Of a stretch of 32,000 nt of DNA, positions 1,268-23,221 are shown piece by piece. Location of the stretch: assembly GCA_000025185.1 (NCBI GenBank), contig CP001848.1, positions 2,310,001-2,342,000 of the forward strand, written 5' to 3'. The notes beneath the pieces were generated by a model, which was not told the DNA's origin, ran no database searches, and worked only from the letters and a program-made list of their open reading frames with translations. Source of the DNA: Pirellula staleyi DSM 6068 (GTDB lineage Bacteria > Planctomycetota > Planctomycetia > Pirellulales > Pirellulaceae). Numbering within the stretch: position 1 is the first letter of the stretch; each line of letters starts with the position of its first letter. A program made the translations under genes and the position numbers.

Positions 1268-2548
1268 CTAGATGTCCGACCAGGAATCGGGCGCCAATGT
1301 CTCGCAGCATGCGCCGCGGCCAAACCGCCAGGTTAACCCCAGGCCGATCCAATAGCTTTCGATGGACGAAGTAGTGAAATTGCCGAGTTGCTCCGTGTCG
1401 CGGAACATCCCGCCAGCCATCATATCCATGTCAATGCCGGGCAGCACATCGGTTACTCCAATACCAAAAGAGATGCGGTGTTGGCTGGTAATGGCTAGTA
1501 GGCCCTGTGTGTATCGTACGGCGGCCAAATCGCCGGGCTGTACGACGCCGCCGATATTGGCTCCCGGCGTATTGTCAATGGGATTCTCTGCCCAAGTGTA
1601 GCCGGTGCGAAATCGGTAGCGACCGTGCGTGAACTGTGCTCCGAGTTGCACAATCAATTGGTTGTCGTAGACAGCCTGATACATGTCGGCTTGATCCCAC
1701 AGCTTGTAAACAACATCCACCCCGAGCAGCAGACGTCCATCTATCATCGAGTTATTGGCCACACCAATCCCAATGTTCTGCGGAAGATCCATTTCCACGT
1801 CCGCGGAAGTTTGCCCCACGCCCGGATTTAGCAAAAAGGCGTTGTCGAATTCATAGGACTGAGCCGTCTGGTAATAGCCACCGATTGTCGTGCTATCCGT
1901 GAGCAAATAATTCATTCCAAGAGTCCCTCGCAAAGCGTAGTCGGAGGTCATTCCGCCAACGCCGACGAATGGGCCGTCAAAAAATGCAATCCCCAGCGAC
2001 AGACTCGCCCCAATCGCGAGTCGATCCGATAGGTCGACGCCTAGCGCGACGGGCATATTGAAAATCGTCTGACCCGTGTTGGTGCCGTGGCTTTCTGGAA
2101 CATGGCGGAAGTCGGCAAAACCGCCAGCCGTCGTGATGAAGCCAATGCCGAACGTGGCAGGCAGCCCCAGTTCACTTATGTCCTGAGTCAGGCCAATGTT
2201 TCCCAGAGGAGTTCCTGGGGCGGTTGACTTAGCGGAAAATGGCTCGATTAACGGCGTACCGATGCTTGGAATATTGCTGGTCTGCGTCAGGTTGAACGTG
2301 GGTTCGGCCCAGCCGCCACCAAAGATGAACTGAGTCCCGTGGAACTGCGTCAGTGCAGCAGGATTTGCATTAAGAGCACTGGTCAAGTCTTGCGGTCTCG
2401 CGATACTGACGCCACCCATGCCACCCGAGGCTGGCATTAAAGTGTTATGCAGTTCCACGCCAAACGACTGACCATAGGCGGCTGTGCCCCCGCCAAATAT
2501 GCACATCGCACATGTAAAGAACCAAAGCCCGAAACGTCTCATGGTCAT
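1268..2548 (-). CDS. Outer-membrane beta-barrel protein, FadL/TodX (OMPP1)-like
   Basis: I prefer the internal start MTMRRFGLWFFTCAMCIFGGGTAAYGQ, which gives a signal peptide. The N-terminal motif GGMGGVSIARPQDLTSALNANPAAL resembles the FadL family. The sequence shows alternating Gly/aromatic beta-strand patterns throughout, with a barrel-closing LTWRF near the C-terminus. It is convergent with the sulfatase gene. Confidence 0.6.
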   Translation of the reverse strand: MTMRRFGLWFFTCAMCIFGGGTAAYGQSFGVELHNTLMPASGGMGGVSIARPQDLTSALNANPAALTQFHGTQFIFGGGWAEPTFNLTQTSNIPSIGTPLIEPFSAKSTAPGTPLGNIGLTQDISELGLPATFGIGFITTAGGFADFRHVPESHGTNTGQTIFNMPVALGVDLSDRLAIGASLSLGIAFFDGPFVGVGGMTSDYALRGTLGMNYLLTDSTTIGGYYQTAQSYEFDNAFLLNPGVGQTSADVEMDLPQNIGIGVANNSMIDGRLLLGVDVVYKLWDQADMYQAVYDNQLIVQLGAQFTHGRYRFRTGYTWAENPIDNTPGANIGGVVQPGDLAAVRYTQGLLAITSQHRISFGIGVTDVLPGIDMDMMAGGMFRDTEQLGNFTTSSIESYWIGLGLTWRFGRGACCETLAPDSWSDI

Positions 2549-2859
2549 GGACCTTGTTGCATTGCGTTGCCGAACCGCTTGGGGCTTGTCGCATAAGCCC
2601 AAGGTTCGGAGTCAACAGCGATCGGCTAAGAGGTTCCTGGCTGTGTGGATCTGAAGACCCACACAGCTGGTCCCACTGAATTGCGTGTGCCATGAGCTTA
2701 AATCGGCATAAATCTATTTTTCCTCTTGTAGCGATTGTGCAGGCCGCAAAGTCTATCCAGGCTTCCAGGCTTACCGCTGGTCCATGCACGATGGATTGCA
2801 ACCAGTGGGGGCGTCGCGAGCCTTCTAAGACAGGGGCACGCGAGTATCGGTACTACTGA

Positions 2860-3414
2860 TGCGCTCGCTACAACTCCGCAGGACATCCTCGCGTTCGTCT
2901 GGTGGAATCGAAACTAGATCGGCAAATGCTCGATCTGTTTCAGACGATGCGAATTGAAGATGAGGGAGTTCGCCGCTGGGTGGTCGAAGTGCTTCGTGCC
3001 AAGTCCACAACTGCGGAGCAAGATGCGACGGCTGAGCGCGATGAGCTGCAGCGAGAACTCGACGCTGTTCGGAAGCAGAAAGATCGTCTGCTAAGCCTGC
3101 GTCTCCTCGATGAGATTGAGTCGGAGACTTTTGCAGCGAAGCAGTCGAAGAAAACGAAGCTGCAAACGCGACTCGAAGGAACTGCTCGTCAGCAGTCGGA
3201 AAGAGGCGATTGGGCGGTGAAAGTGTTTGAACTTTCGCAAGCTCTTGGGGCTAAATGGCTTGCGGCCGATATCGCAGAAAAGCGACTGCTTCTAGAAATC
3301 GTCTGTTTGAACTTGAAGCTCGTCGACGTAACTCTAGTCCCAGAAATGAGAAAGCCCTTCGACATGCTCGCCGAAGGGCTTCTTATCTCATCAAGTCGGG
3401 GTGACTGGATTTGA
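2860..3414 (+). pseudogene. Remnant of a large serine recombinase (C-terminal coiled-coil part only; catalytic N-terminus missing)
   Basis: The frame opens just after a TGA at 2857 and has only a GTG start. The translation (DELQRELDAVRKQKDRLLSLRLLDEIESETFAAK ... EKRLLLEIVCLNLKLVDVTLVPEMRKPFDML) resembles the coiled-coil C-terminal region of large serine recombinases. No resolvase catalytic domain lies upstream. The last 19 nt overlap the 3' end of the tRNA-Pro. Confidence 0.5.
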
Positions 3415-3470
3415 ACCAGCAACCTTCTGCACCCCATGCAGACGCGCTATCCAGGTTACGCTACACCCCG
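3396..3470 (-). tRNA. tRNA-Pro (anticodon GGG)
   Basis: The reverse complement reads CGGGGTG-TA-GCGT-AACCTGGATA-GCGC-G-TCTGC-ATGGGGT-GCAGA-AGGTT-GCTGG-TTCAAAT-CCAGT-CACCCCG-A. This gives a 7-bp acceptor stem, a D arm, a 5-bp anticodon stem with a 7-nt loop carrying GGG, a canonical T arm and a discriminator A. CCA is not encoded. Length is 75 nt. Confidence 0.9.
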
Positions 3471-3771: not shown

Positions 3772-5448
3772 TTAGGAGAATAGTCGTACCAGGAAGACGA
3801 CAAACACCGTAACCAGAATGACCACCGAAGCGAGTCCGCAAAGGATGCCGACAAACTGATAGAGGTCGTTGATTTGGACCGACAGCCGCGTCCATTCCAC
3901 TTCCTCTTGTTCCTCGGTCAGTTTTTCAAAGACCCCGCGCACAAACGCCTGCTGATCTTCGGTGTCGCCGGTGGCGGCGAAGTAACAGCCACTGAAAGCG
4001 ATCGGTTCGGCTGGATTCTTTTGGTTTGATTCGTAGCCAAAGCCCCCGGAGAGAACTTCGCGGAGAACGCCAGCAAGGTTCGAGCGCATCTGGCAGAGCA
4101 GACCGTAGAGTCGCGTATTGCCGGGGCGCGAGAGGGCTTCTGCTTCGCGGAAGAGGGTGTGAATCCAGTCTTCAAAGACCCCGGTGATTTGTCCACAAAG
4201 ATTTGTCACCTGTTCGGCGGTGGCGATCATGCGGACATCGAAGCGGCGACCAAAACGCTGGGTGGCAGCTCGTTCGCGTCCCACGCGGCGAACCAGTTCG
4301 CGAAAGCCACGCTGATTTTGCATGCCGGTGATGAGAGCGGTGACAGGGCAGCGGACCGTGAGTTCGTTTTGAATGATCGTGAGATCGGCGCGCACGGCAC
4401 GCTGCATCTCTTGCGTTTCGCGCTGGGTCGCCTGGAATACGTCGAATGGGAGCAGTGTGAGGACACCATTGAGCGGGCACAAGGGCCGACGTCCGCGACG
4501 CAGGAGTTGGCAAACGTATTCGAGCCGCTGCTGTTGTCGCGACGACTCTTGCGGCGAGAGCAGGGCAGGCTGATCGCTGACCGACGACGAAACGGAGGGG
4601 ACAAAATCGTCTTTGTCGTCGACCTCTTGGCTGCTCGATTGGGCTGAAGCTTCAGCAGCGGCAGCGAGCGATTGTTTTTCCATGACGAACTGATCGAGCA
4701 TGATCGTGCCACGATTGCGTTCGGCCCGTTTGGCGGGTGCGGGTGTCGAGGCCGTGGTGTTGATTGGCGCAACCGGTGCCGGAACTATGTTTTGCGGCAT
4801 CGAGAGGTCGGTGGGTGGCGCGCCCGAAGCGATGAGTTCGTTGCGACGTTTTTCGACGAGCGCCGCAAGCGAACTGGCCCAGCTTGCCTGGGTGCAAAAC
4901 AGATAGATTCCGTCGGGACCGGCATACCAGTGCAGCGGCGCAGGACCATCGGGAAGTTCTCGCATCCGCAGCGCTACGCCCGAGGCTCGCATGAGCGAAC
5001 GTTCCTGATTAATTCCGGGAGTGCCGACAATCAGAAACAAGGGCGCGCTGCTGAGAGAAAGACCGCTCCGCGAAAGTTGCTCGAGCCCCGTTTGCCAGGC
5101 GTAGTCGATATCGGGAAAAGGAGATTTGTCCCCTTCCATCCAGAGTCGAATGGCGTAGTAAAGCACGATTGGAATCGTGATGACGAGCATCACTTCGAGC
5201 GTCACCCGGAGCCACGACATCGAATGTCGCCACGGGACATTGTTGCTATCGACGAGAAAAACGATCCAAACCGTGATCAGCAGAATGGTGAGGACGAGAC
5301 TGGTGAGGCAACTAGCGCAGCCGGCTGTCGTAATCTTGCTGGGCCACGCCATCAGCCGCGCAAAGAACCCGGGCTGAGCGGGCGCTTTCGCCTTCTTCTC
5401 GGGCTTCTTTTCGGGTTTGGTTTCTTCAGCGGGTGCTTCGTCGCTCAT
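3772..5448 (-). CDS. tssM: TssM/IcmF-like T6SS membrane protein, short form (TM1-TM2, cytoplasmic domain, TM3, then stop)
   Basis: Two N-terminal TM helices are present (CLTSLVLTILLITVWIVFLV and VMLVITIPIVLYYAIRLW). PLFLIVGTPGINQERS sits at the position of the IcmF P-loop but lacks GK[ST]. HWYAGPDGIYLFCTQAS matches the DWWFT..AVLIDTAGRY region. RRPLCPLNGVLTLLPF matches the ImcF-related N-domain motif, and GCYFAATG matches YFTSG. A final TM helix (ILCGLASVVILVTVFVVFLV) comes 5 residues before the stop. Confidence 0.8.
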   Translation of the reverse strand: MSDEAPAEETKPEKKPEKKAKAPAQPGFFARLMAWPSKITTAGCASCLTSLVLTILLITVWIVFLVDSNNVPWRHSMSWLRVTLEVMLVITIPIVLYYAIRLWMEGDKSPFPDIDYAWQTGLEQLSRSGLSLSSAPLFLIVGTPGINQERSLMRASGVALRMRELPDGPAPLHWYAGPDGIYLFCTQASWASSLAALVEKRRNELIASGAPPTDLSMPQNIVPAPVAPINTTASTPAPAKRAERNRGTIMLDQFVMEKQSLAAAAEASAQSSSQEVDDKDDFVPSVSSSVSDQPALLSPQESSRQQQRLEYVCQLLRRGRRPLCPLNGVLTLLPFDVFQATQRETQEMQRAVRADLTIIQNELTVRCPVTALITGMQNQRGFRELVRRVGRERAATQRFGRRFDVRMIATAEQVTNLCGQITGVFEDWIHTLFREAEALSRPGNTRLYGLLCQMRSNLAGVLREVLSGGFGYESNQKNPAEPIAFSGCYFAATGDTEDQQAFVRGVFEKLTEEQEEVEWTRLSVQINDLYQFVGILCGLASVVILVTVFVVFLVRLFS

Positions 5449-5566: not shown

Positions 5567-6199
5567 TTATCCGTAAAACAGATACACGGCTGAAGTGGCT
5601 GCAATGAGGATCATGGTGAGTCCCGACCACAGCAAGATCATGCGACCGCGCTGGGGTGGAGCACCGCTGATCTCGCGACGCTTCCCATTCATGTTGGGGC
5701 GACCTTGGCCAAGTCGCACCGACATCGAGGCCTGCTTGGCCCAACTTTCGATGTCGGGAGGGAGTCCCAGATTCTGGATCGAGTAGATCGCTAGTTCGGG
5801 ATCGCGATAGACGCCGCGAAAGCCGAGGACGACACAAACGTAGTAAACTTCCAGCGCATCACGCGACGTGAGTGACGATGCCTCTTTCGCCCGCTCGTAG
5901 AACTGTTCGTAGCAGGTACGAGTGCTGAAGAGTTCGACTTCGAGCACGTTGTTGCTCCACCAATCGCGCCCCTCCCACGGAGCATCGACCAGCATTTCGT
6001 CGGCCCACGAGCAAATGGCATACTTGGCGAGCTGCCAGTCGGGCGAACTGCCGAGAATCGCTTCGGCCTGATCGATGAGTGTGCGAATGCGCAGTCGCTC
6101 ATCTTGCGGGGAGAGTTTTTCCTCGCGCGCAATCCGATCGAGCACCGACAAGATGTGGAGCATGATCGGGTCGACGGCATGGGCAAACTTGGGCGTCAT
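5567..6199 (-). CDS. tssL: TssL (DotU-family) T6SS membrane protein
   Basis: Cytoplasmic DotU-like domain: the segment YAICSWADEMLVD ... ALEVYYVCVVLGFRGVYRD matches the LGF.G.Y signature. A single C-terminal TM anchor follows (MILLWSGLTMILIAATSAVYLFYG). There is no OmpA/peptidoglycan-binding extension. The gene lies between tssK and tssM. Confidence 0.85.
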   Translation of the reverse strand: MTPKFAHAVDPIMLHILSVLDRIAREEKLSPQDERLRIRTLIDQAEAILGSSPDWQLAKYAICSWADEMLVDAPWEGRDWWSNNVLEVELFSTRTCYEQFYERAKEASSLTSRDALEVYYVCVVLGFRGVYRDPELAIYSIQNLGLPPDIESWAKQASMSVRLGQGRPNMNGKRREISGAPPQRGRMILLWSGLTMILIAATSAVYLFYG

Positions 6200-6311: not shown

Positions 6312-7784
6312 TCACTGTCTGTTGGGAACAGCGAATAGTGCGAACTGCAGCGGCACTTGTTTGCCACGATGCGAGATCACCATTTGGCGTTGGCCCTGCA
6401 GCCGATCGAGGTTCACGATCAGCGAATCCTTCAGACGCATTGCCAGCGTTTGGGTTGCTTGCACATCGCGCCAGGCGGGGGATTCGTTCTTGCTCACCTC
6501 GTAGTAAACCCACTCTTGCTGCACGGGCAGAGCACGAATCGCTCGATCCATCGGATTGAGCCGCACCCCTTCCGCACGCTGTTTGAACAGGATTTCCACC
6601 TGCCGACTGCTACCGAGTTTCCAGTCGAGTTGGCCGGGCGAAAGCAGGTCGCGGATTTCCTGGGTCGTGAGGTCACCCTTGTTCACTCCGACATACCACT
6701 GCCAATCGCTGTTGAACCACTTGGATTCGAGCGAAACTTGCATCCCCAGACCGACACCTTCGAAGTATCGCTGTTCGTACTCGTAGTCGCGCACCATGTT
6801 CAGCAGCGTTTCGATGCGCAGCTTCACGTCGCGGAAAATCTCGCACAGATTGTCGTGATCGTACGGAAGTACGGGATCGGTGCGTCGTTCGGGGGCAAAG
6901 ATCGAGAGTTGACCAACGATGCGGCAAAGCTCGGTGTAGGCCGCGATAGGATGCACCCCTTGCGCGAAGCCGAGAATTGCCAGTGCGTTGTAGGCCGCGT
7001 TGATTTCCGACAGCATCAGCAGACGATCGAGATCGCCCGGATGGCGGCTTTCGAGGCCGACACCGCGGCTGGTGATCTGGCCTGCTAGCACTTCGATTTT
7101 TTGGCCGATGACGTCGTAGATCGAGCGGACAATATCGCGTGCTAAATACTGCCAGGCATCGATCGCCACGACAGGCGGAATATAGCTGTCGTCGAGCTGG
7201 GGTCGCGCGTTGCTGGCGCTCGCACGCTTCACTTGCGCAATTGGCAAGCATTCGTAGCCGGTGCGATCTTGTGTCGAGAGCAGCAGTTTGACGTTGAGAT
7301 TGCGCAGCTCGATTTCTTGCTCGTTGCCACCCATCGCTTCGTCTTGCGAGAGCATGCGCTGCGAGATGTAGCGTGGTGGTGGTTCGGTGTCGGTGGTGTT
7401 GGCGACATTCGCGCGTCCCATTTTCAGTTTGGGAACGGCGAGATAGACCCGCACGACAGGCCGAGCATCGAAAGCTTCTTCGAGGCTCGCGAGCGCTTGA
7501 TTCATCGCTAGCACATCATCGCGCAGATTGAGGCGATCAGGTTCCTCGCCAAACTCTAGCGACACCAGTGTGCCATCTTGCATGCGGGCTTTGAGCACAC
7601 GCACTTCGAATTGATTGTTGGCGAGTGCTTCGCGACTGATATCGAGAGCGACAAGACCATAGTTGTAAGGATGATCCCACTGCTCGCCGGTGGCAGCATG
7701 TTCCGAGGCAGCGCGATCGGCTGCTTGGAAGTGGTGGGGCCTTAGGAAGAGACCTTCGTACCAATGGACCGGTAGATTCCGCAT
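6312..7784 (-). CDS. tssK: TssK T6SS baseplate protein
   Basis: The N-terminus PVHWYEGLFLRPHHFQAADR matches the conserved V.W.EG..L.PQHFQQ.D opening of TssK. The length (490 aa) fits. A GAGG lies 7 nt upstream of the ATG. It is first in a tssK-tssL-tssM series. Confidence 0.9.
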   Translation of the reverse strand: MRNLPVHWYEGLFLRPHHFQAADRAASEHAATGEQWDHPYNYGLVALDISREALANNQFEVRVLKARMQDGTLVSLEFGEEPDRLNLRDDVLAMNQALASLEEAFDARPVVRVYLAVPKLKMGRANVANTTDTEPPPRYISQRMLSQDEAMGGNEQEIELRNLNVKLLLSTQDRTGYECLPIAQVKRASASNARPQLDDSYIPPVVAIDAWQYLARDIVRSIYDVIGQKIEVLAGQITSRGVGLESRHPGDLDRLLMLSEINAAYNALAILGFAQGVHPIAAYTELCRIVGQLSIFAPERRTDPVLPYDHDNLCEIFRDVKLRIETLLNMVRDYEYEQRYFEGVGLGMQVSLESKWFNSDWQWYVGVNKGDLTTQEIRDLLSPGQLDWKLGSSRQVEILFKQRAEGVRLNPMDRAIRALPVQQEWVYYEVSKNESPAWRDVQATQTLAMRLKDSLIVNLDRLQGQRQMVISHRGKQVPLQFALFAVPNRQ

Positions 7785-8008
7785 GGAGACCTCAGGCTGG
7801 GGAGTAAAGGCACGCCCAAGTTATCAGAAACAGAAAAAAGTGGTAGTTCGTTCGATAAAAGGTGTCGTTACAGCCGATACATCCGGAAAGGTTTGCCTAA
7901 ACTGCACGACCGGTATTGCTAGCGACGATCGAGCTGGCTGATAGCGGCGGTGGAAAGGCAACATGTTCTTCCAGATTAAAAGCTTCGGAACCTGCTGTGG
8001 CTGCACCC

Positions 8009-9922
8009 ATGCCAAAAGCGAGGACGGGAAGTTTGCGAGCGATCGCAAGCTTCGCGTTGCTGCTAGCGACAAGTTCGCTGGCGGCACAGGATCCGTATGC
8101 GCCGGTGGGTGTGCCAGCGGCATATCCTTCATCGGTCCCGGCACCAACGTTTGGCCTGCCGAATCTGCCAGCAGGTCAAATGCCAGCCCGCGTGCAGCCA
8201 GCACCGTATTCGCCGCCCCATGCTGGTAATTGGGTCGCGCCGCCAACTTACGCGAATCTTCCGCCTCAGCAACCACCTGGGGTGCCACAAAGCGGAACCA
8301 GCTTCGTGCCGCCGCTCCCGGCAGCACAGCCTCCAGTGCCCCCCGGCTATGTTCCCCCACAGCCCCCTCGTAGCACGGTGGTCCAGGCCCCTTACTTCGG
8401 CCAGCAAGCCGCTCAGCCCGTTCTTTCAAGCACGTCGCAACCTGCTGTGCAGCAAACAGTGACCGCACAAGCGGCCCCTTCACAGCCTCCAGCATCTGGC
8501 TGGAAGTCGTGGGTTCCAAAACTCCCTTGGAACCCCTGGAACGACGTTGCTCCGAGCGATACACCGGTGGTGGCCCCACCATCAGCTTCCGACCCCCGCA
8601 GCAGTGCGGCGACAGCAATGCCGGTCCCTGGTCGTCCTGGAACCACCCTGGTTCGCATCCCCGATCCGGTCATTTCCCCCACCGGCGAAATCGTCATGCC
8701 GTCGAGTGTCGGCAGCAACTTCGGTGTGCAGCAAGCTGCTTACAGCGAAGATGTTACGTCAGCCGTCGGCACTGGCCCAGTGCGTAATGCCATCGAATGG
8801 GGAACTGTTCACCCCGCCGGATCGGTCCAGCAGGCGTCGGCCCTCCAGCCAGCCATGATGGGTGAGCCTCTCCCCACACCAGCTGGTATGCCCATGCCAG
8901 GGGGTGATTTCATGATGAACAACAGCTTCGGACAGGGGTACACCACCACCTATCAATCCCAACCCGGAGCACCAGATTCTGCTAGCCCCATATTCGGCGA
9001 TCTCTTGGGCGAGCAAGGCTTTACGGAAACCGCGAGCGATGCCTGGCTCGGAGATTGGTCGGACGGATACTACGGCGATCCGGTGCGTGAAGCGGGCATT
9101 GGACGCGAGCGCGTGCAGGCGGCTCCCTTCGAAATCGATATCGCTCAGCCGCAAGCCAGTTTTACGTTCCGCACCCAAGCTGGTTGGAACGTCGGGTTCC
9201 CCGACCGGTCGGAATACTTTTTCGCTAAACCGGGGCGCGGACCAGCGGCCGACACCGGTGCCGATTTCCAAGACTTCCGTTTTCAGCTCGAGGTGGGTGG
9301 TGGGTCGGCTTCGGTGATTACCGATATTCCGATCCGTGTCCTCGATCCGGAAATCAACCCCAACACAACCGGTATCGGCGACATGTCGACCACCGCCAAG
9401 GTGGTATTGATGCAGGGGGGAGACTGGATGATGACCCAGGTGACCAAAACCACGTTCAACAGTGGTAATGCTCGCAAGGGTTTAGGCACGGGGCACGTCT
9501 CGATCGAGCCCGGTATGCTGTTCCGCTATAACTCGAGCGACATCACCTACTGGCATGGCGAACTGAAGGTCAATTTCCCTATCGCGGGTGACCCAGCCCA
9601 CAGCGGACAAGTTCTGAAGTGGGGCATTGGTGTCAGCCATGTGATCTACGAAACCGATGCCTTTGCCATCATTCCGACGTTTGAGTACACCAACATGTGG
9701 TTCCTCGATGGTGGGCAAACGGTGATCGATCCGCCGCTTCCTAACACCATCATCGATGTCGATGGCGACGGTCTCTCGTACTTCACCGAAGGGGCCCGCC
9801 TCATTTTCGATACCGGTGGAGATCTCGGTTTGATGGAGGTCGGCATCTGTGCTCAGCAGCAGATCGGTTCGCTGGGCTATCTCGATGCGATGCTGAAGTT
9901 CGACCTGCGATTCATCTACTAG
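8009..9922 (+). CDS. Secreted protein: signal peptide, Pro/Gln-rich linker and a C-terminal beta-barrel-like outer-membrane domain
   Basis: I prefer the internal ATG at 8009, giving MPKARTGSLRAIASFALLLATSSLAAQ (Sec signal with an A-A-Q cleavage-like site). About 190 aa of low-complexity Pro-rich sequence follow. The last ~270 aa alternate hydrophobic and polar residues, are Gly/aromatic rich (GLGTGHVSIEPGMLFRY, KWGIGVSHVIYE) and end in an aromatic residue (KFDLRFIY), as in OM barrels. The gene is divergent from tssK. Confidence 0.65.
   Translation: MPKARTGSLRAIASFALLLATSSLAAQDPYAPVGVPAAYPSSVPAPTFGLPNLPAGQMPARVQPAPYSPPHAGNWVAPPTYANLPPQQPPGVPQSGTSFVPPLPAAQPPVPPGYVPPQPPRSTVVQAPYFGQQAAQPVLSSTSQPAVQQTVTAQAAPSQPPASGWKSWVPKLPWNPWNDVAPSDTPVVAPPSASDPRSSAATAMPVPGRPGTTLVRIPDPVISPTGEIVMPSSVGSNFGVQQAAYSEDVTSAVGTGPVRNAIEWGTVHPAGSVQQASALQPAMMGEPLPTPAGMPMPGGDFMMNNSFGQGYTTTYQSQPGAPDSASPIFGDLLGEQGFTETASDAWLGDWSDGYYGDPVREAGIGRERVQAAPFEIDIAQPQASFTFRTQAGWNVGFPDRSEYFFAKPGRGPAADTGADFQDFRFQLEVGGGSASVITDIPIRVLDPEINPNTTGIGDMSTTAKVVLMQGGDWMMTQVTKTTFNSGNARKGLGTGHVSIEPGMLFRYNSSDITYWHGELKVNFPIAGDPAHSGQVLKWGIGVSHVIYETDAFAIIPTFEYTNMWFLDGGQTVIDPPLPNTIIDVDGDGLSYFTEGARLIFDTGGDLGLMEVGICAQQQIGSLGYLDAMLKFDLRFIY
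8087..8668 (+). repeat. Low-complexity Pro/Gln/Ala/Val-rich coding tract (linker) inside the 8009..9922 CDS
   Basis: The translation is dominated by short P-rich motifs (PPQQPPGVPQ, PPLPAAQPPVPPGYVPPQPP, APSQPPASG, VVAPPSASDP) with no exact tandem unit. Confidence 0.6.
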
Positions 9923-10611
9923 TCTCCAGCTAACGAACAGCAACTTGACGCATGGCATTTGATTGCTCAAATCACCACGCGATTTGGTCTGGTTTTGCCA
10001 CTAATGGGGTGGCTGTTCGTGGCCCTTAAGGACCGCTTTCCGGGGCTGCGAAATCGGTGGGATCGATGCTGTGGCAGCGATCGTGCCAATTGAGCGAATT
10101 TTTCGTGATCGCTGCTTGTTTTTGCAACCTGCGAGGTTTAGAAACTAGCGCAGATACGGTCTTTTGCGGCAAATCCCCCTTCCACGTCAACGATGACAGC
10201 TTCGCTTGGAAGCTGCTCCCGGAGGCGTACTTGATCGACATTCTTGGGTGGCATGCAAACATCTGGGGACGCGCCGCAGCAAGGGATTGCGTAGGTTTCA
10301 TAAGGTTTTTTGAGCAGTAAGTGCTGCGACGACTAGGGAAGCTAAGTTGCCCCTGCAAAGGCATCTCGCGAGCGACTCGGTTTCTATTTTTTCCAGAAAC
10401 TTGGTGCACGATTCCCAATAGAACGCGGTGCTCGACGAACCCTGTGTGAACAATTTCTGGACTTCGAAAAAAACCATTTGCTGCGCTCTTGCGTGCCTTA
10501 CGCATAACGTAGAGTTGGTGCCAACGAAGTCTGGGACGACGAGGAATTGCCAGCGACGGATTGCAACTGTGGAGACAGTAAATTCTTGGAAGGGCTAGTG
10601 CCACACCCGAC

Positions 10612-11706
10612 ATGATTAGCAACCTAGATATCGATAAACTCCTCGCGCCAATCTCCGAAGATTCGCCGTGTGGAGAGAACCTTGAGTACGACGCCGACTA
10701 TGCCGAAATGGCAAAGGCAGCCGAAGGAAAAGGGGACCAGCAGTTCGGAAAAACGGTGATTGCCGCCGAAGAACCTGACTGGAAAACCGTTCGTTCCCTC
10801 GCCGTTTCGCTCCTCGGTCGATCAAAAGATCTCCGAATTGCCGACTTCCTGACGCGAGCCTCGATTCGTCTCGATGGCCTCCCAGGACTTCACGGCGGAC
10901 TCTCCGTTATTCACGGTCTCTGCGAGCGATTCTGGCCGACCGTTCACCCGCAACTCGATCCCGACGACGACAACGATCCCACGATCCGCGTCAACACGAT
11001 CGCCACGCTGTGCGATCCCCTCACCACCCTCAAAGCTGTCCGCGAAATGCCGTTTGTGAAGAGCAAACTGGGCATGTTCAGCTACCGCGACCTGCTGGTG
11101 GCTCGTGGCGAAATGCCCCCGCCAGCGTCGGGCAACAAAACAGAAATGTCGTCGCTCGATGCCGCTTTTGCCGAGTGCGACCCGAATCTTTTGCTATCGC
11201 TGGCCGAGAGTGCCAAAGAGTGTTTGCGGCTGTCGATGGGCATCGAAGCTGTCGTGACCGATCAGGTGGGGACGTCGAACGCTCCCAACCTCGAAGACCT
11301 CACCGACATGCTGCGGGGCATCAACAAGCACCTGCAAGATCGTGTCCAGCAGCGCGGGCTCAATAAGCAACCCGAGCCAGAACCGGTGGAAGAGGATGCC
11401 CCGGCGGAGTCGTCCAGCGGATCAACGGCTACAGCTTCAACATCGGCCTCTCAACCTATGCGAATCACTGGCGAAATCAGCAGCCGCGAAGATGTCATTC
11501 GAACGATCGACAAGATCTGCGAATACTACCGCCGCTACGAACCATCGAGCCCTGTCCCGTTGTTTCTGAATCGTGCCAAGCGTTTGGCGTCGAAGAGCTT
11601 TCTCGACATCTTGCGAGATCTCACTCCCGATGCCTTGTCGCAAGCTCTTTCGCTCGGAGGTATCTCCGATGCGAGCGAGTTGCAGGCCGATGACGACGAT
11701 ATGTAA
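10612..11706 (+). CDS. tssA: TssA (ImpA-family) T6SS protein
   Basis: ImpA N-domain opening LLAPISEDSPCGENLEYDADYAEM ... DWKTVRSLAVSLLGRSKDLRIADFLTRA. An acidic/Ser-rich linker follows, then the C-terminal YEPSSPVPLFLNRAKRLASKSFLDILRDLTPD typical of TssA. Confidence 0.85.
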   Translation: MISNLDIDKLLAPISEDSPCGENLEYDADYAEMAKAAEGKGDQQFGKTVIAAEEPDWKTVRSLAVSLLGRSKDLRIADFLTRASIRLDGLPGLHGGLSVIHGLCERFWPTVHPQLDPDDDNDPTIRVNTIATLCDPLTTLKAVREMPFVKSKLGMFSYRDLLVARGEMPPPASGNKTEMSSLDAAFAECDPNLLLSLAESAKECLRLSMGIEAVVTDQVGTSNAPNLEDLTDMLRGINKHLQDRVQQRGLNKQPEPEPVEEDAPAESSSGSTATASTSASQPMRITGEISSREDVIRTIDKICEYYRRYEPSSPVPLFLNRAKRLASKSFLDILRDLTPDALSQALSLGGISDASELQADDDDM

Positions 11707-12100
11707 CGCGACAAAAACAGCGTTGCCGACGTGACAGTTCAGAGAGATGGATCGGACTGATAGAGCCTGCTGAATAGCGTAGAGATCCCATAATCCTGTC
11801 AATGCGAATTACAGGAGCTTGTCGCACAGCTCATGCGAGCGTTATCGCTTGTCTAGCCTGCGAGAGCCCTTGTAGCTTGCAAAGTTGATAGAGGCCTCAG
11901 GTTTTCGCGTGGTTTCCTCGTCGGACGACCCCGGAACTGAGGACTTTAGCGGAATAAAACAACTGATCGTCGGCTGCGGTAACTCGAGCACGATCCAAAA
12001 CATCCATTCTCACGGTCGTGTTGCTAGCGAGCCTAAATACTGGCATAGTTTCGCGCCGATGAGGAGCAGCAAGTCATCCCCCAAGTAAAGGAGCCTTACC

Positions 12101-12613
12101 TTGGCCAAAACCAGCAGCCAGAAGTTCATTGCACGAAACCGTGCCCCTCGCGTGCAGATCGAATACGATGTGGAAGTTTACGGAGCTGAGAAAAAAGTTC
12201 AGCTTCCGTTTGTGATGGGCGTGATGGCCGACTTGTCGGGTAAGCCTGCTGAACCTCTGGCCGCAGTGGCTGATCGCAAGTTCCTCGAGATCGACGTCGA
12301 CAACTTCGACGAACGCCTCAAGAGCATGAAGCCCCGCGTGGCATTCAACGTCCCCAACACCCTCACCGGTGAAGGCAATGTGGCCGTTGATATCACCTTC
12401 GAGAGCATGGACGACTTCTCACCCGCTGCGGTGGCACGCAAGGTGGAAGCGCTCAACAAGCTGCTCGAAACCCGCACGCAGCTGGCCAACCTGCTGACGT
12501 ACATGGACGGCAAGAGTGGCGCCGAAGACCTCATCGGCAAGGTCCTCAAAGATCCTTCGCTGTTGCAAGCTCTGGCCTCGGCTCCCAAGCCGGAAGCCCC
12601 CGCTGCTGAATAA
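12101..12613 (+). CDS. tssB: TssB (VipA) small sheath subunit
   Basis: RAPRVQIEYDVEVYGAEKKVQLPFVMGVMADLSG and ITFESMDDFSPAAVARKVEALNKLLE are hallmark TssB segments. The start is TTG, with AAAGGAG 8 nt upstream. Confidence 0.92.
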   Translation: MAKTSSQKFIARNRAPRVQIEYDVEVYGAEKKVQLPFVMGVMADLSGKPAEPLAAVADRKFLEIDVDNFDERLKSMKPRVAFNVPNTLTGEGNVAVDITFESMDDFSPAAVARKVEALNKLLETRTQLANLLTYMDGKSGAEDLIGKVLKDPSLLQALASAPKPEAPAAE

Positions 12614-12700
12614 TTCCCTGCAAGGCGTTGGTGGCTCGCGTCGAGCCCCCGCTGTTGCTCCACAATTCAAAGCCTTCCACTTCCGGTCGGAGTATTCAAG

Positions 12701-14200
12701 ATGTCGATGGATCCCAGTTTGCAGTCAGCCCAGCAAGGTGCCGAAACCACCTTCGCTTCGAGCGATTTTTCGTCGCTCCTCCAAAAAGAATTCAAACCCA
12801 AGAGCGATCGTGCTAAGGAAGCCGTTGAGTCGGCTGTAAAGACCTTGGCTCAGCAAGCTCTCGAAGGGACCGCTGTTGTTTCCGACGACGCGATCAAGAC
12901 GATCCAGGCCATCATCGCCTCGATCGATCAGAAGCTCTCGGAACAGGTCAACCTGATTCTGCACAACCCTGATTTTCAGCAGCTCGAAGGTGCCTGGCGT
13001 GGTTTGCACTACCTCGTCAACAACACCGAAACCGACGAAATGCTGAAGATCCGCGTCTTCAACATCTCGAAGAAAGAACTCGGCAAGACGCTCAAGAAGT
13101 TCAAGGGAACGGCTTGGGATCAGAGCCCGATCTTCAAGAAGATGTATGAAGAAGAATACGGCCAATTCGGTGGCGAGCCCTACGGCTGCCTCGTGGGTGA
13201 TTATCACTTCGATCACAGCCCACCCGATGTCGAATTGCTCGGCGAAATCTCGAAGGTTTGCGCCGCTGCTCACGCTCCGTTCATCGCCGGTGCTTCCCCC
13301 ACGCTCATGCAAATGGATTCGTGGCAGGAACTCTCGAACCCTCGCGATCTGACCAAGATCTTCGGCACCGCCGAATACGCTCCTTGGCGTTCGCTCCGCG
13401 AATCGGACGATTCACGCTACATCGGCCTAGCGATGCCACGCTTCCTCTCGCGATTGCCTTACGGCGCGAAGACCGACCCAGTCTCGGAATTCGACTTCGA
13501 AGAGGATGTCGAGAACGCTGATCACAGCAAGTACACCTGGTCGAACGCTGCTTACGCGATGGCCACGAACATCAACCGTTCGTTCAAGCTCTACGGCTGG
13601 TGCTCGCGTATTCGCGGTATCGAATCGGGCGGTGCCGTGGAAGGCTTGCCTTGCCATACGTTCCCCACCGACGACGGTGGCGTGGACATGAAGTGCCCCA
13701 CCGAAATCGCGATCAGCGACCGCCGCGAAGCGGAACTCGCCAAAAACGGTTTCATGCCACTCGTGCACAAGAAGAACTCGGACTTCGCCGCGTTCATTGG
13801 TGCTCAGTCGCTCCAGAAGCCACAGGAATACGACGATCCCGATGCCACGGCCAACGCCAACCTGTCGGCCCGTCTCCCTTACTTGTTTGCCACTTGCCGC
13901 TTCGCTCACTATCTCAAGTGCATCGTTCGCGACAAACTGGGTTCATTCAAAGAAAAGGAAGACATGCAGGGTTGGCTCAACCGCTGGGTGTCGAACTACA
14001 TCGAATACAACCCGAAGCTCGCTTCGGAAGAAGACAAAGCTCGCCGCCCACTCGCTGCAGCTGAAGTGACCGTCGAAGAAGTGGAAGGTAACCCAGGTTA
14101 CTACTCTTCGAAGATGTTCCTCCGCCCCCACTACCAGCTGGAAGGTTTGACCGTGTCGCTGCGACTCGTGTCGAAACTCCCATCGGGCAAGGGTGGTTAG
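12701..14200 (+). CDS. tssC: TssC (VipB) large sheath subunit
   Basis: 499 aa with WRGLHYLV, HAPFIAGASP, YAPWRSLRESDDSRYIGLAMPRFLSRLPYG and FAHYLKCIVRDKLGSF, which are typical TssC blocks. It lies directly downstream of tssB. Confidence 0.93.
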   Translation: MSMDPSLQSAQQGAETTFASSDFSSLLQKEFKPKSDRAKEAVESAVKTLAQQALEGTAVVSDDAIKTIQAIIASIDQKLSEQVNLILHNPDFQQLEGAWRGLHYLVNNTETDEMLKIRVFNISKKELGKTLKKFKGTAWDQSPIFKKMYEEEYGQFGGEPYGCLVGDYHFDHSPPDVELLGEISKVCAAAHAPFIAGASPTLMQMDSWQELSNPRDLTKIFGTAEYAPWRSLRESDDSRYIGLAMPRFLSRLPYGAKTDPVSEFDFEEDVENADHSKYTWSNAAYAMATNINRSFKLYGWCSRIRGIESGGAVEGLPCHTFPTDDGGVDMKCPTEIAISDRREAELAKNGFMPLVHKKNSDFAAFIGAQSLQKPQEYDDPDATANANLSARLPYLFATCRFAHYLKCIVRDKLGSFKEKEDMQGWLNRWVSNYIEYNPKLASEEDKARRPLAAAEVTVEEVEGNPGYYSSKMFLRPHYQLEGLTVSLRLVSKLPSGKGG

Positions 14201-14305
14201 TAGCGAAAGTCTCCACCAGATCAAGCGGCGGCGCGGCCCACAAAGGCACGCCGCTCGTAAGCTCTGCTGGTGACTGGCAATCGAAGCGGATCAAACGAAC
14301 AAAGT

Positions 14306-14353
14306 CGCGGAGTCGGAGGGTTCCATCCTGAAAACTCCCTCCGCGATTTTTTT
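14306..14353 (+). terminator. Rho-independent terminator downstream of tssC
   Basis: CGCGGAG(tc)GGAG pairs with CTCC-CTCCGCG, giving 11 GC-rich bp with a 2-nt bulge. It is followed by A plus a run of seven T (14347-14353), about 105 nt after the tssC stop. Confidence 0.7.
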
Positions 14354-14880
14354 CGAATGGGGCCTGCCAGGGATGTGCTCATCACCTGTTAGGCCAAGGA
14401 TTAGGATGCTTGTCCACGGAGCGGCACTCCCAGCGGATGGGGTTTCACCGGAGGAGAGGCGAACCAGATTTCCTGAAAGATTTGGTTCTGGAAGGTGAGT
14501 AGGGCGGGGCATGTGTGAAACACAGCCTGTGGCAAATTGCCAACGGCTGATGGGCTTTTGCAGCAACCTCGAGCACTGCTCGCCAGTGGTTTTCGAACGA
14601 TGGGGTTAATTTTCCCCAAGAAAACGATTCCCCAGGTAGTAATCTCCCTCACGACTTGGCAGAATTTTCGAAAATCGTTCCAAGGAATCAAAAAAGTCGG
14701 CGAATACGTTGCGTCTGATCTGGCCACAAGCGGAGAAGAGGCAGCAAATTCCAAGACGGATTTAGATCAGAAATCAAACTGCAGCGGTGCTGGTGATCGT
14801 GCTCACACGGCCCGCTGCCATCGTAGTAATTCGTGGGCAAAACAGTTTTCTGTCTCGCATTGAACTAAAGGAACGTTCGC

Positions 14881-15381
14881 ATGATTCTGCTCAAACTTGA
14901 TGGTGTTACCGGCGACTCGCAGATCCCAGGTTACGAAGACTGGATTGCCTGCACCAGCTGCAGCTGGAACATTGAACGTACGTTTTCGGAATCGGCCAAG
15001 GCTGGTACCCTCGACGTGAACGTCGGTGTTGCTGAAATCCCACCAATTACCCTCGGCAAGTCGTTTGACGTGGCGAGCGTCTACCTGATGCAAAACGCCA
15101 TCGCTGGCGGTGCTCTGGGAACCGCTGCTCAGATCCACTTCCTCAGCACTTCGGGTACCGAAGGCACTGGCGCTATCTACCTCGAATACAAACTGTTCAA
15201 TCCGATTGTGGCCAGCTGGAGCATCAGCGGCGACGAAGATGAACGTCCGACGGAAGAAGTGACCCTGTGGTACTGGAAGATTTGGATGCAGTACTACGCC
15301 TCGACCGACGGTAAGAACTACGTCGGTAAGGGTAACAAGGGTTGGGATCGTACCAAGAACAAGTCGTGGGACGGCAAGTAA
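14881..15381 (+). CDS. hcp: Hcp (TssD) tube protein
   Basis: 166 aa. MILLKLDGVTGDSQIPGYEDWIACTSCSWNI matches the Hcp opening (F/LKIDGI.GES......WIE..SFSW.). AAAGGA lies upstream of the ATG. It sits in the tssC/tagJ neighbourhood. Confidence 0.88.
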   Translation: MILLKLDGVTGDSQIPGYEDWIACTSCSWNIERTFSESAKAGTLDVNVGVAEIPPITLGKSFDVASVYLMQNAIAGGALGTAAQIHFLSTSGTEGTGAIYLEYKLFNPIVASWSISGDEDERPTEEVTLWYWKIWMQYYASTDGKNYVGKGNKGWDRTKNKSWDGK

Positions 15382-15410
15382 TTTGCCCCTCCCCGATAGG
15401 CAGCGGGTTC

Positions 15411-15436
15411 TCTCGGGAAGCCCACGTTTCCCGAGA
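15411..15436 (+). other. Stem-loop 30 nt after the hcp stop (9-11 bp)
   Basis: TCTCGGGAA (15411-15419) pairs with TTCCCGAGA (15428-15436). There is no U-tract afterwards. Confidence 0.5.
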
Positions 15437-15487
15437 TCTCTGCTGCCAATCAGTGTCAGATTTCGGCTGACTGGACGAGTGGCTATC

Positions 15488-15515
15488 GCAGCGTGAGCGT
15501 TTTTTGCTCCGCTGC
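15488..15515 (+). other. Stem-loop in the hcp-tagJ spacer (10 bp, one bulge, U-rich loop)
   Basis: GCAGCG(t)GAGC - GTTTTTT - GCTCCGCTGC. Confidence 0.45.
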
Positions 15516-15561
15516 TGGATGACAGCTCGACGCCGAATCTAGCGACCTTCGCTCGAGAATA

Positions 15562-15596
15562 TCGCCTGCCAGTTCCAACTCGGAGTTGGCAGGCGA
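15562..15596 (+). other. Long stem-loop or palindrome in the hcp-tagJ spacer (15 bp including 2 G-U, 5-nt loop)
   Basis: TCGCCTGCCAGTTCC - AACTC - GGAGTTGGCAGGCGA. No U-tract follows, so it is not a classical terminator. Confidence 0.55.
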
Positions 15597-15716
15597 CAAC
15601 TCTCCTGGATCCTTCAGCGTGCTGCACGAAGCGCACGTCAGTCGAGCCTCTGCGATACTTCCATCGCTGGCTTGTCATCAACATGATTATTACGCTGATT
15701 TACTTCGCGAGAGAAA

Positions 15717-16658
15717 GTGAGCCCTTCGGTGGACGCCCTCAGTACCCTTCGCGATGGCAATCTCGACACCGCTCTAGCCGAATTGAGCCAGAAAATCCGC
15801 AGCAATCCGGGTGATCCCAAGCTGCGAGTTTTTCTCTTTCAGTTGCTTTGCGTTCAAGGCCAATGGGATCGCGCTCTCACGCAACTCGGCGTCTCGGGCG
15901 ATATGGACCCGATCGCGATGCCGATGGTGCAGACCTATCGGGAAGCGATTCGCTGCGAACTTTTGCGAAGCGACATTTTCACCGGCAAACGCACACCGCT
16001 GATCTTCGGCGAACCGGAGGAATGGATCGCGCTGCTGATGCAGTCGCTCGAGCAAACGGCGAAGGGTCACATCGCTGAGGGGGAAACGCTCCGCCAACAA
16101 GCGTTCGAGCTCGCTCCCGTCACTTCCGGCGTGATCAAAACGGCGAATCGAGTTCCCGAAGGGGAGAGCGAGTCGTTCACCGAAACCCCGTTTGAATGGC
16201 TCTCGGACGCCGATTCGCGTCTCGGTCCGATCATCGAAGCGATCGTGAACGGCCGCTATTACTGGATTCCTCTGCATCGCATTCGCCGCATCGATGTCGA
16301 GAAACCCGAGGATTTGCGCGACTACGTTTGGACGCCGGTCCATTTCCAGTGGGCCAATGGTGGTGAAGTGGTGGGGCTCGTCCCCACACGCTATCCGCTG
16401 ACCTTCAACAGCACCGATCCACTGCTGAAGCTCTCGCGCAAGACTGAGTGGAACGAAATTGCCGAAGGGGTTTACCACGGCCTCGGGCAACGAATGCTCA
16501 CCACCGATGCCGGCGACTATGCTCTGATGGATGTGCGACAAATTCGCCTCGATGTGGCTCTCGATGCGTCGATGAAGAGCCCTGAAGAAGCGGTCGCCCT
16601 CGACGTTTCGCCAGAACTACGGGCCGGTAGCGTCGACGGAGAGTCCACGGATGGCTGA
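15717..16658 (+). CDS. tagJ: TagJ / ImpE (SciE)-family T6SS accessory protein
   Basis: N-terminal TPR-like LRDGNLDTALAELSQKIRSNPGDPKLRVFLFQLLCVQGQWDRALTQL and C-terminal GRYYWIPLHRIRRIDVEKPEDLRDYVWTPV match the ImpE family. The GTG start is uncertain. The stop overlaps the tssE start (ATGGCTGA). Confidence 0.8.
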   Translation: MSPSVDALSTLRDGNLDTALAELSQKIRSNPGDPKLRVFLFQLLCVQGQWDRALTQLGVSGDMDPIAMPMVQTYREAIRCELLRSDIFTGKRTPLIFGEPEEWIALLMQSLEQTAKGHIAEGETLRQQAFELAPVTSGVIKTANRVPEGESESFTETPFEWLSDADSRLGPIIEAIVNGRYYWIPLHRIRRIDVEKPEDLRDYVWTPVHFQWANGGEVVGLVPTRYPLTFNSTDPLLKLSRKTEWNEIAEGVYHGLGQRMLTTDAGDYALMDVRQIRLDVALDASMKSPEEAVALDVSPELRAGSVDGESTDG

Positions 16659-17154
16659 GTTAACCACGCAAGAGCGTTTGCAGCCGTCGCTCCTCGATCG
16701 GCTTACTGATGAAGAGCCGCAGCAAGGACAGGAATCTCGCAATCGGCGCGTGTTGTCGCTGCAACGTTTGCGCGAAAGTGTGCTTCGCGATCTTGCCTGG
16801 CTCCTGAACACCACGAATCTCGGTGACCGAACCCTGGAGTACGAAGCCCCGTTTGTTGAATCGTCGGTGCTGAACTATGGGGTGCCCGATTTCGCGGGGC
16901 TCACCAGCAGCAGCGTCGACGGGGGCCAGTTGCAGCGACTGGTGAAGCAAGCGATCTGGAATTTCGAGCCCCGCATTCTGCGCGAGACACTCGAAGTGAA
17001 CATCAGCGCCGATGGTGGCCGGATGGACCAAAACAGTTTGATTTTTGAGATTTCGGGAGAGCTCTGGGCCCAGCCGGTGCCGCTCGAATTGTTCCTCAAG
17101 ACCCAAGTAGACCTCGAAACTGGAAGTATCTCGATTGCCGACTTTGTCCGTTGA
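16651..17154 (+). CDS. tssE: TssE (gp25-like) baseplate protein
   Basis: LQPSLLDRLTDEEP ... SVLRDLAWLLNT ... SVLNYGVPDFAGL are typical of the TssE/GPW-gp25 family. 167 aa. An 8-nt overlap with tagJ suggests translational coupling. Confidence 0.88.
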   Translation: MAELTTQERLQPSLLDRLTDEEPQQGQESRNRRVLSLQRLRESVLRDLAWLLNTTNLGDRTLEYEAPFVESSVLNYGVPDFAGLTSSSVDGGQLQRLVKQAIWNFEPRILRETLEVNISADGGRMDQNSLIFEISGELWAQPVPLELFLKTQVDLETGSISIADFVR

Positions 17155-17219
17155 TTAGCAGGGGCAGCCCCTCGTTTTCATCGCCGCGCAGTCAGGTTGG
17201 AAGGAACGCTCCCTCAGTC

Positions 17220-20098: not shown

Positions 20099-20287
20099 AT
20101 CCTCATGAAACGAACCATTTCAGAGAAAATTCTGCCGACTGAACAGTTCGGGACCAAACGTGTCATGAGTTAACTCAATAGTAACTCTTGCGTATGTCCT
20201 GAGAAAATCAGTCGTTGTTACGAAGAAACTTTTTACAAGTTATTTAGCACTAGAAGTCACTGCAAAGTCTCTCGGAGAAACTGCCAC

Positions 20288-23035: not shown

Positions 23036-23221
23036 TCTTGCGAAATCCCAGTCGATCGCGGTGGAAAGGCTTTCTTTCCACCGCCTCGGCTGAAATTCCA
23101 AGATTCCAGCGCCACCAACGAACTAGAATCGCGCGAAGGCATTCCCTTTCGCGCGATTTTGCATAGCTACTTCCTACTCTATCGCTCCACACGACCTTGC
23201 AACCAGCTGAGAGGCTCCTTT

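Follow-up and report, generated by a model that had tools for sequence, protein, structure and literature searches.

A T6SS locus that lacks TssJ and the periplasmic part of TssM

We have analyzed a stretch of 32,000 nucleotides from the genome of Pirellula staleyi DSM 6068 (GCA_000025185.1, contig CP001848.1, positions 2,310,001 to 2,342,000 of the forward strand), hereafter called the window. It is a type VI secretion system (T6SS) locus with an H1-like gene order. The interval between tssK and tssA holds a gene for a 637-residue protein with a predicted signal peptide, a long disordered region, and a C-terminal beta-barrel. We call it the barrel protein. The gene is divergent from tssK, which is followed by tssL and a short tssM, and the block from tssA to clpV lies on the other side (Table 1). 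In H1 loci, the tssK-tssA interval is where tssJ and fha are kept.

How is the membrane complex of this system built? Hydropathy places hydrophobic segments of TssM at residues 39-71, 77-104, and 526-558. The protein ends inside the third membrane helix and hence has no periplasmic domain. Among 33 aligned TssM relatives, 32 end 0 to 6 residues past this helix. The Walker A motif GxxxxGK[ST] is missing from the TssM of the window and from its relatives (0/33). Judged from these sequences, the short TssM has no periplasmic part and probably no NTPase activity. Proteins of this kind form a large family with 670 matches, of which the best 120 are 394 to 701 aa long and match PF14331 only (P0084 to P0203). 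TssL is tail-anchored at residues 187-208 and carries no peptidoglycan-binding extension. Within the 32-kb window there is no match to TssJ (PF12790), IcmF_C, or IcmF-related, and no open reading frame (ORF) with a plausible lipobox; the sole lipobox-like ORF is antisense inside a 1084-aa gene. We considered that TssJ, or a periplasmic domain of TssM encoded separately, might be present elsewhere in the window, and rejected both in the absence of a Pfam match and of a credible lipobox. The initial annotation had read this T6SS as lacking TssJ and the periplasmic domain of TssM. The hydropathy of TssM, the Pfam matches, and the lipobox scan agree, and the reading is confirmed as far as the visible 32 kb are concerned.

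The gene divergent from tssK

The gene is read from an ATG, and other in-frame starts are found at two TTG codons, at 7916 (668 aa) and at 8033 (629 aa), the latter being the start used in the public protein P0214. The spacer that separates it from tssK is presumably a regulatory region shared by both genes. Only 1 of its 224 positions is changed relative to a 98.65% identical assembly (L088, GCA_002483025.1). No consensus sigma-70 promoter occurs within these 224 bp, and a check by eye gave no convincing match to a sigma-54 site. The barrel gene contains two minus-strand sites that resemble terminators, no more than expected by chance. The initial annotation had described a 224-bp divergent spacer leading into the slot of fha and tssJ. 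The spacer agrees exactly with our coordinates; the slot does so in part, since the gene occupies the tssK-tssA interval but lies on the strand of tssA and not on that of tssK.

Compared with GCA_002483025.1, the coding sequence shows 21 synonymous changes, 4 non-synonymous changes, and no indels. Residues 1-215, which include the low-complexity tract described below, take 12 of the 21 synonymous changes and all 4 of the non-synonymous ones. This comparison indicates that the tract is translated and that it, like the gene as a whole, is under purifying selection. The gene was nevertheless split by gene callers in GCA_002483025.1 and in a Logan assembly, presumably because of its low-complexity tract: at L088:5526-7351 and L089:5526-7485, public calls cut it into 336 and 253 aa or into 434 and 88 aa. 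The ORF is continuous in both assemblies, intact and free of gaps, which rules out a frameshift or a pseudogene. Such split calls may explain why the full-length protein was missing from the first homolog search.

Domain organization of the barrel protein

The N-terminus reads as a Sec signal peptide for cleavage by signal peptidase I. In its sequence, MPKARTGSLRAIASFALLLATSSLAA followed by Q, a basic n-region leads into a hydrophobic core and an AxA-type cleavage site. An AxA site followed by Q is also found at the corresponding position of homologs, and AlphaFold models a helix at residues 5-25. The tract that comes next is rich in proline: over residues 27-215, Pro makes up 25%, Ala 14%, Val 11%, and Gln and Ser 9% each. 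In the AlphaFold models, the Pro-rich N-terminal region has no helix longer than 5 residues and a predicted local distance difference test score (pLDDT) below 50. More precisely, in an AlphaFold2 model built from a 70-sequence alignment, residues 34-352 are mostly below 50, with the exception of a short hairpin. The initial annotation had described a secreted protein with a Pro/Gln-rich tract of about 190 aa, and both the signal peptide and the composition bear it out.

Within the N-terminal region, confidence is raised nowhere but in this hairpin (mean pLDDT of 69 for residues 211-220 and of 88 for residues 221-230), which is modeled with beta-bridges. It corresponds to a linear motif conserved in two family alignments, with the consensus V[GR]LPVPQxxxxGxLxVxPNV. 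A strict regular expression of this motif matches 36 of 84 family members, and relatives with long N-termini carry the variant RPKIIFQPAV..GR.VLRP.V.V. The hairpin is separated from the barrel by a variable linker, and the distance between the two is 93 to 178 aa in homologs. A conserved lead segment precedes the barrel directly. Its residue G365 is invariant in the family alignment, with G363 and R368 nearly so, and its short helix (GIGRERV), modeled at residues 364-371, is present in both the full-length and the barrel-only models. By its likeness to the plug helix of FapF (PMC5557850), this segment is a candidate plug or latch. The mature N-terminal region amounts to 336 residues. We estimate its extended contour at about 100 nm and its radius of gyration as a random coil at about 5 nm, so that the tether has ample length to cross a periplasm.

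This organization is not peculiar to Pirellula staleyi. A profile search of 1.84 billion representatives returned 1240 clusters at E<=1e-3, of which 677 at E<=1e-30. Long low-complexity N-termini recur in the family: many members have N-termini of 200 to 700 residues, and analogous tracts reach about 700 aa. We read six long members; a signal peptide was seen in five of them, and all six have low-complexity sequence rich in S, A, P, Q, and T followed by a variant of the hairpin. The family is thus characterized by a long, disordered tether that carries a conserved hairpin ahead of the barrel. The top match of the search, P0204 (665 aa), has the linker and the first barrel half duplicated internally in near-exact form, probably an assembly artifact.

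Fold of the barrel and comparison with known outer-membrane proteins

In the AlphaFold2 model from the 70-sequence alignment, residues 360-637 are all-beta with a pLDDT above 90. A model of the barrel alone (residues 355-637) has a pLDDT of 94.3, a predicted TM-score (pTM) of 0.88, and 12 strands of transmembrane length. The protein ends with the C-terminal beta-signal DLRFIY, which has the canonical form of a BAM insertion signal, and 75 of 84 family members likewise end in F, Y, or W. Many charged residues of the barrel are invariant or nearly so (E402, D458, H496, E500, E559, R597, D605, and R634). A closed barrel with an even number of antiparallel strands is thus predicted, with a C-terminal aromatic signal as in outer-membrane barrels, and we expect the barrel protein to be located in the outer membrane. 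The initial annotation had surmised a C-terminal barrel with a terminal aromatic residue. The structure prediction that it had proposed returned such a barrel with confidence, ending in RFIY.

The window protein has no match in Pfam (E<=10), NCBIfam, or the PDB (by phmmer and by profile), and comparison with known proteins must rely on structure. With Foldseek, all top PDB matches are outer-membrane barrels. The best is FapF, the functional-amyloid transporter of Pseudomonas (PDB 5o65, 5o67, and 5o68), with an E value of 2e-9, a query TM-score (TMq) of 0.61 to 0.67, a target TM-score (TMt) of 0.62 to 0.70, and about 10% identity. FapF is a plugged 12-stranded barrel. Its N-terminal extension, made of a coiled coil and a disordered linker, was located to the periplasm by experiment, and it was proposed that the extension could reach across this compartment (PMC5557850). 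The two proteins share the 12-stranded barrel, the short helix that precedes it, and the disordered linker with an N-terminal extension. They differ in that FapF has a trimeric coiled coil where the window protein has Pro-rich disorder. At this identity, with no sequence or profile match and in the context of a T6SS instead of fap genes, the window protein is not a member of the FapF family.

The second-best match is a channel of the COG4313/PF13557 group, Pput2725 (4rl8; TMq 0.59-0.60, E 3e-6), which has the same 12-stranded fold class. The initial annotation had suggested a resemblance to Phenol_MetA_deg (PF13557). This is in keeping with the structural match and with a weak match to PF13557 in 6 of 70 relatives (best E 2.5e-6), but the window protein itself fails to match PF13557 even at E<=10. 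The barrel gene is also linked to the T6SS and not to catabolic genes, and the matched PDB chains (about 270 residues) have neither the long tether nor the hairpin motif. NanC was matched as well (TMq 0.50), and lower matches include PcoB, KdgM, OmpG, and autotransporter barrels. Among the latter, the type Va autotransporters EspP, Hbp, and EstA are significant (TMq 0.44-0.53). They share with the window protein a C-terminal 12-stranded barrel, an N-terminal extension, and a pre-barrel helix. However, their TM-scores are below that of FapF, and the window protein has a helix of only 8 residues, no folded passenger, and no Autotransporter Pfam match.

Association of the barrel gene with T6SS loci

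A search with the barrel domain gave 83 homologs at 35 to 59% identity. A scan of one genome per species gave 160 relatives, from which 80 loci were kept, mostly of Pirellulales. All of these are from Planctomycetota by label, save one metagenome-assembled genome (MAG) labeled Alcaligenaceae (L079). T6SS genes in the loci were identified with profile hidden Markov models, and 5 of the close homologs were uninformative. The initial annotation had described the link to the T6SS as positional only. It can now be replaced by conserved synteny: 58 of the 61 informative close homologs are linked to T6SS genes, with 53 adjoining tssK divergently and 5 beside tssA or a vgrG/FHA-DUF6931 island. Judged from the size of a T6SS locus (about 25 kb) relative to a genome of several Mb, we would expect well under 1% of random genes to lie this near to it.

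Two architectures of the whole locus, M-L-K <> barrel-A-B-C... and F-E-..-C-B-A-M-L-K <> barrel, preserve the junction with tssK, and it persists where tssKLM are separate from the sheath genes (for example in L001, L002, and L005). All four homologs on long metagenome contigs are divergent from tssK-tssL-short tssM, even where the sheath genes lie elsewhere. In MAGs with two copies (L022/L042 and L054/L056), both are T6SS-linked. Among more distant relatives from Gemmatales and Isosphaerales, at 28 to 33% identity, T6SS genes occur within 10 kb in 6 of 10 informative loci. Because this synteny is conserved across divergent genomes, we are highly confident that the barrel gene is a dedicated T6SS gene, specific to the lineage of Planctomycetota. 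Beside vgrG, these genomes regularly encode a protein with FHA (Yop-YscD_cpl) and DUF6931 domains (L002:2463-3263, L015:11629-12597, L020:10892-11905, and L038:5868-6923). In L015, L020, and L038, the barrel gene lies inside such a vgrG/FHA-DUF6931 island rather than at tssK.

Possible role in the T6SS envelope

What could a barrel do in a T6SS? The best explanation, which we hold at about even confidence, is that the barrel protein is a structural outer-membrane component of this system. Within the T6SS envelope apparatus, the Sec-exported barrel would be the element that resides in the outer membrane. Its tether would hang into the periplasm, by analogy with the N-terminal extension of FapF, and the conserved hairpin could dock on peptidoglycan or on another partner. 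In this way, the outer membrane would be held or marked above the place of baseplate assembly by the TssK-TssL-TssM anchor. The periplasmic orientation of the tether, a physical link with the inner-membrane complex, and a need for the protein in secretion are what we infer from this model. From the dimensions of a 12-stranded barrel and of Hcp, its lumen is far too narrow for the Hcp tube, and the barrel cannot be the conduit of the tube.

The protein would thus be a functional and not a homologous substitute for TssJ and the periplasmic domain of TssM. Like them, it is predicted to be associated with the outer membrane; its gene lies in the tssK-tssA interval and is present where both are missing, and the role that we propose for it is analogous. 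Unlike TssJ, the window protein is an integral barrel and not a lipoprotein; it has no lipobox and no match to PF12790, IcmF_C, or IcmF-related, and its gene is on the strand opposite to tssK. Another solution is known from the T6SS-iii of Bacteroidota, where TssJLM are replaced by the unrelated envelope proteins TssN/O/P/Q/R. The planctomycete system differs in keeping TssL and the cytoplasmic part of TssM, and the components of the two systems are different and show no homology. The same logic, that of a lineage-restricted accessory gene that offsets a missing feature of the membrane complex, applies to TsmK of Acinetobacter, TagV of Serratia, and TagL (PMC13584744). None of these is an outer-membrane barrel or is reported from Planctomycetota, and the review that describes them mentions no barrel component (PMC13584744). 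In the literature we found no beta-barrel component of a T6SS, no planctomycete T6SS membrane complex, and no account of the barrel protein (subscription-only papers were outside the scope). T6SS genes in planctomycetes have been noted, in Rhodopirellula baltica and in freshwater Planctomycetacia.

Several observations weigh against a structural role. TssL and the short TssM expose just 0 to 6 periplasmic residues, and there is therefore no obvious docking partner for the tether on the inner membrane. The Pro/Gln tract of the window protein cannot be aligned with those of its homologs. Three of the 61 informative close homologs (L011, L047, and L061) have no T6SS gene in the available flanks. 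Co-occurrence with short-tssM loci, the check suggested by the initial annotation, turned out to be limited when the question was reversed. We scanned metagenomes with the short-TssM alignment as the seed and obtained 80 loci, about 31 of them informative. The barrel family is adjacent in only 8 of these (divergent from tssK in 6, downstream of tssM in 2). The 23 informative loci without it comprise 9 with a giant protein, 3 with tssA, and 11 with neither. In addition, on a 1-Mb contig (L090), no barrel gene lies within 10 kb of tssKLM, and insertion-sequence genes are found nearby. In genomes of this kind, the gene may be located elsewhere. With the gene missing beside about 23 of 31 informative short-TssM loci, the barrel protein is not a universal requirement, nor is it indispensable at that position. 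Judged by adjacency, it is not a core component present in all loci of the subtype.

The giant protein has 1470 to 1670 aa, and its gene is divergent from tssK; three more loci with shorter flanks also carry it. In L163, the one sequence that we read, it has an N-terminal membrane anchor. Its C-terminus matches the CarboxypepD_reg Pfam family in L163 and a related transthyretin-like family in L149, and no further Pfam matches were found. From these sequence features, it is a candidate for a substitute spanning the periplasm. In a rough neighbor-joining tree of TssK, built without support values, loci with the barrel are spread over the entire short-TssM clade, a distribution that points to an ancestral partnership. 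Giant-protein loci occupy nested sub-clades of this tree, and loci with neither gene are scattered. The simplest reading of this pattern suggests an ancestral partnership with the barrel, later relocations of the gene, and its replacement in some lineages. In another type of locus (tssK-L-M-...-tssA-B-C-C, with two tssC paralogs), a gene between tssM and tssA was considered as a highly diverged homolog of the barrel gene and was rejected; its product of about 230-250 aa looks, by eye, like a member of the sigma-70 family. It was seen in L122, L127, L128, L136 (12106-12807), L149, L151, L163, and L171.

The problem of the missing docking site would disappear if the N-terminal region were displayed at the surface, passed through or alongside its own barrel, to form an autotransporter-like filament for contact, adhesion, or sensing that serves T6SS firing. 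The domain order is that of classical autotransporters (N-terminal extension, short helix, and C-terminal 12-stranded barrel), three of which, EspP, Hbp, and EstA, are among the significant structural matches given above. The FapF barrel was termed "AT-like" by its authors (PMC5557850), and an N-terminus whose length varies from about 50 to 700 aa would suit a surface spacer. Yet FapF, the nearest structure, holds its N-terminal region in the periplasm, and the pre-barrel helix of 8 residues is too short to span the pore. There is also no match to the Autotransporter Pfam family (PF03797) and no folded passenger, and tight linkage with tssKLM, instead of effector or vgrG modules, is better suited to a part of the machine. 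We regard surface display as unlikely. A different function suggested by the fold is that of a plugged channel of the FapF/COG4313 type that is co-regulated with the T6SS, for example for the uptake of hydrophobic compounds that killed prey release, or for the export of an unfolded peptide or signal. The best folds are indeed a polypeptide transporter (FapF) and a proposed channel for hydrophobic compounds (COG4313), to which the weak PF13557 matches of 6 of the 70 relatives can be added. The conserved charged residues of the barrel and the pre-barrel helix are typical of a gated lumen, and a channel of this kind would account for short-TssM loci without the barrel gene. But the constant neighbors are tssK, tssL, and tssM, with no conserved substrate gene or fap-like partner gene. 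Linkage maintained over 28 to 60% identity and through rearrangements of the locus would be unusual for a nutrient channel that is merely co-regulated, and the conserved hairpin and long tether would be left unexplained. This makes a channel clearly improbable in our view.

Could the protein instead sense contact or envelope damage and trigger T6SS assembly, in the manner of the TagQRST-PpkA input of the Pseudomonas H1-T6SS? The H1-like order would fit, with the gene in the interval where H1 loci keep tssJ and fha, as would the FHA-DUF6931 genes found with vgrG in related loci. Accessory factors that compensate for membrane-complex assembly, or that regulate it, are common (PMC13584744). We nonetheless consider a sensor very improbable, as the window has no kinase, phosphatase, or FHA gene, TssL and TssM lack a periplasmic receiver domain, and the sequence of the protein holds no hint of signaling. 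The least favored explanation is that of an unrelated porin that neighbors the T6SS by coincidence. In its favor, the evidence for a link comes from genomes only, the available flanks of three close homologs contain no T6SS gene, and many short-TssM loci have no barrel gene. Against this stand the 58 of 61 informative loci, where under about 1% would be expected, and the recurrence of the divergent tssK junction across architectures and split loci. Coincidence is strongly disfavored and has, in our opinion, next to no chance of being right.

A broader proposal can also be made, which we would sooner expect to fail than to hold. Planctomycetota could have a third design of T6SS envelope, next to TssJLM and the TssN-R set of Bacteroidota. 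It would combine TssL and a TssM without periplasmic residues or Walker A motif with a 12-stranded FapF-like barrel on the outer-membrane side, coupled to the firing site by its long disordered tether and conserved hairpin. In some lineages, the slot of the barrel gene would be taken by a giant periplasmic protein of about 1500 aa anchored in the inner membrane.

Other features of the window

Beyond tssM, a FadL/BamG-like protein of 444 aa (1268-2602, minus strand) was considered as a second T6SS barrel. It has no homolog in any of 87 related loci and is therefore an unrelated neighbor. A tRNA-Pro(GGG) gene (3395-3470, minus strand) lies directly beyond the short tssM, and a 170-aa ORF beside it (2902-3414, plus strand) has weak similarity to the C-terminus of large serine recombinases (CcrC/XisF). 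From their sequences, the two may represent the boundary of an island, or what is left of an integrase where the T6SS locus ends. On the other side, the 689 bp from the barrel gene to tssA (9923-10611) contain no convincing ORF, Rfam match, or predicted terminator, and a separate tssA promoter in this stretch is possible. A 293-aa ORF (14803-15684, minus strand) was rejected as an antisense artifact of hcp, despite its tblastn matches in related loci. Annotation guided by ORF length can easily be misled by it. A 380-aa protein encoded just after clpV (23159-24301, plus strand) and two adjacent proteins of about 1090 aa (25215-28469 and 28598-31888, both minus strand) have no Pfam or NCBIfam match, and these three could be cargo or accessory proteins of the T6SS. 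We identified neither vgrG nor a PAAR gene in the window; in related genomes, vgrG islands are found elsewhere.

Table 1. Coordinates of the barrel gene, its parts, and the T6SS genes of the window, followed by giant-protein genes in other loci
Feature	Position	Strand	Remarks
Barrel-protein gene	8009-9922	+	637 aa from ATG; stop TAG at 9920-9922
Intergenic spacer between tssK and barrel gene	7785-8008	none	Exactly 224 bp, up to the tssK start at 7784 (-)
Signal peptide, residues 1-26	8009-8086	+	Predicted cleavage between LAA and Q, read from sequence
Low-complexity disordered tract rich in Pro/Ala/Val/Gln, residues 27-212	8087-8644	+	Composition; pLDDT <50
Conserved linear hairpin motif TLVRIPDPVISPTGEIVMPSSVG, residues 213-235	8645-8713	+	Family alignments; AlphaFold
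Variable disordered linker, residues 236-362	8714-9094	+	pLDDT mostly <50
Conserved lead segment GIGRERVQAAPFEID, residues 363-377	9095-9139	+	Short helix at 364-371
Predicted 12-stranded beta-barrel, residues 383-637	9155-9919	+	AlphaFold models
Invariant-rich motif GLGTGHVSIEPG, residues 491-502			Within the barrel
tssK	6312-7784	-	490 aa; PF05936, E 5e-70; divergent partner gene
tssL/DotU	5567-6199	-	210 aa; PF09850; hydropathy
Short tssM	3772-5448	-	558 aa; IcmF-related_N only
Downstream T6SS block, tssA-clpV	10612-23035	+
tssA	10612-11706	+	Pfam
tssB	12101-12613	+	Pfam
tssC	12701-14200	+	Pfam
hcp	14881-15381	+	166 aa; identified separately from the Pfam scan
tagJ	15717-16658	+	Pfam
tssE	16651-17154	+	Pfam
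tssF	17151-19097	+	Pfam
tssG	19061-20098	+	Pfam
clpV	20288-23035	+	Pfam
Giant-protein genes of other loci	L116:2769-7199, L126:2574-7586, L149:2792-7432, L163:840-5252, L167:1159-5709, L171:2310-7334		Divergent from tssK
Further giant-protein gene	L107:2751-7688

Implications

Models of the T6SS rest on the trans-envelope complex TssJLM, and a system that lacks it raises the question of how the tube gets through the periplasm and the outer membrane of the attacker. Here, a large and widespread environmental lineage keeps the contractile machine and the baseplate whole, with TssM cut down to its membrane and cytoplasmic part, no TssJ found, and a conserved, unannotated barrel gene at tssK. The family gives a context to about 1240 clusters of hypothetical proteins, and its gene is one that automated callers were shown to split in public assemblies. 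It also provides a concrete target in Rhodopirellula, Stieleria, and similar strains, whose enlarged, invaginated periplasm makes the crossing of the envelope puzzling. If the barrel is part of the machine, this would be a new design of the membrane complex and the first integral beta-barrel component of a T6SS.

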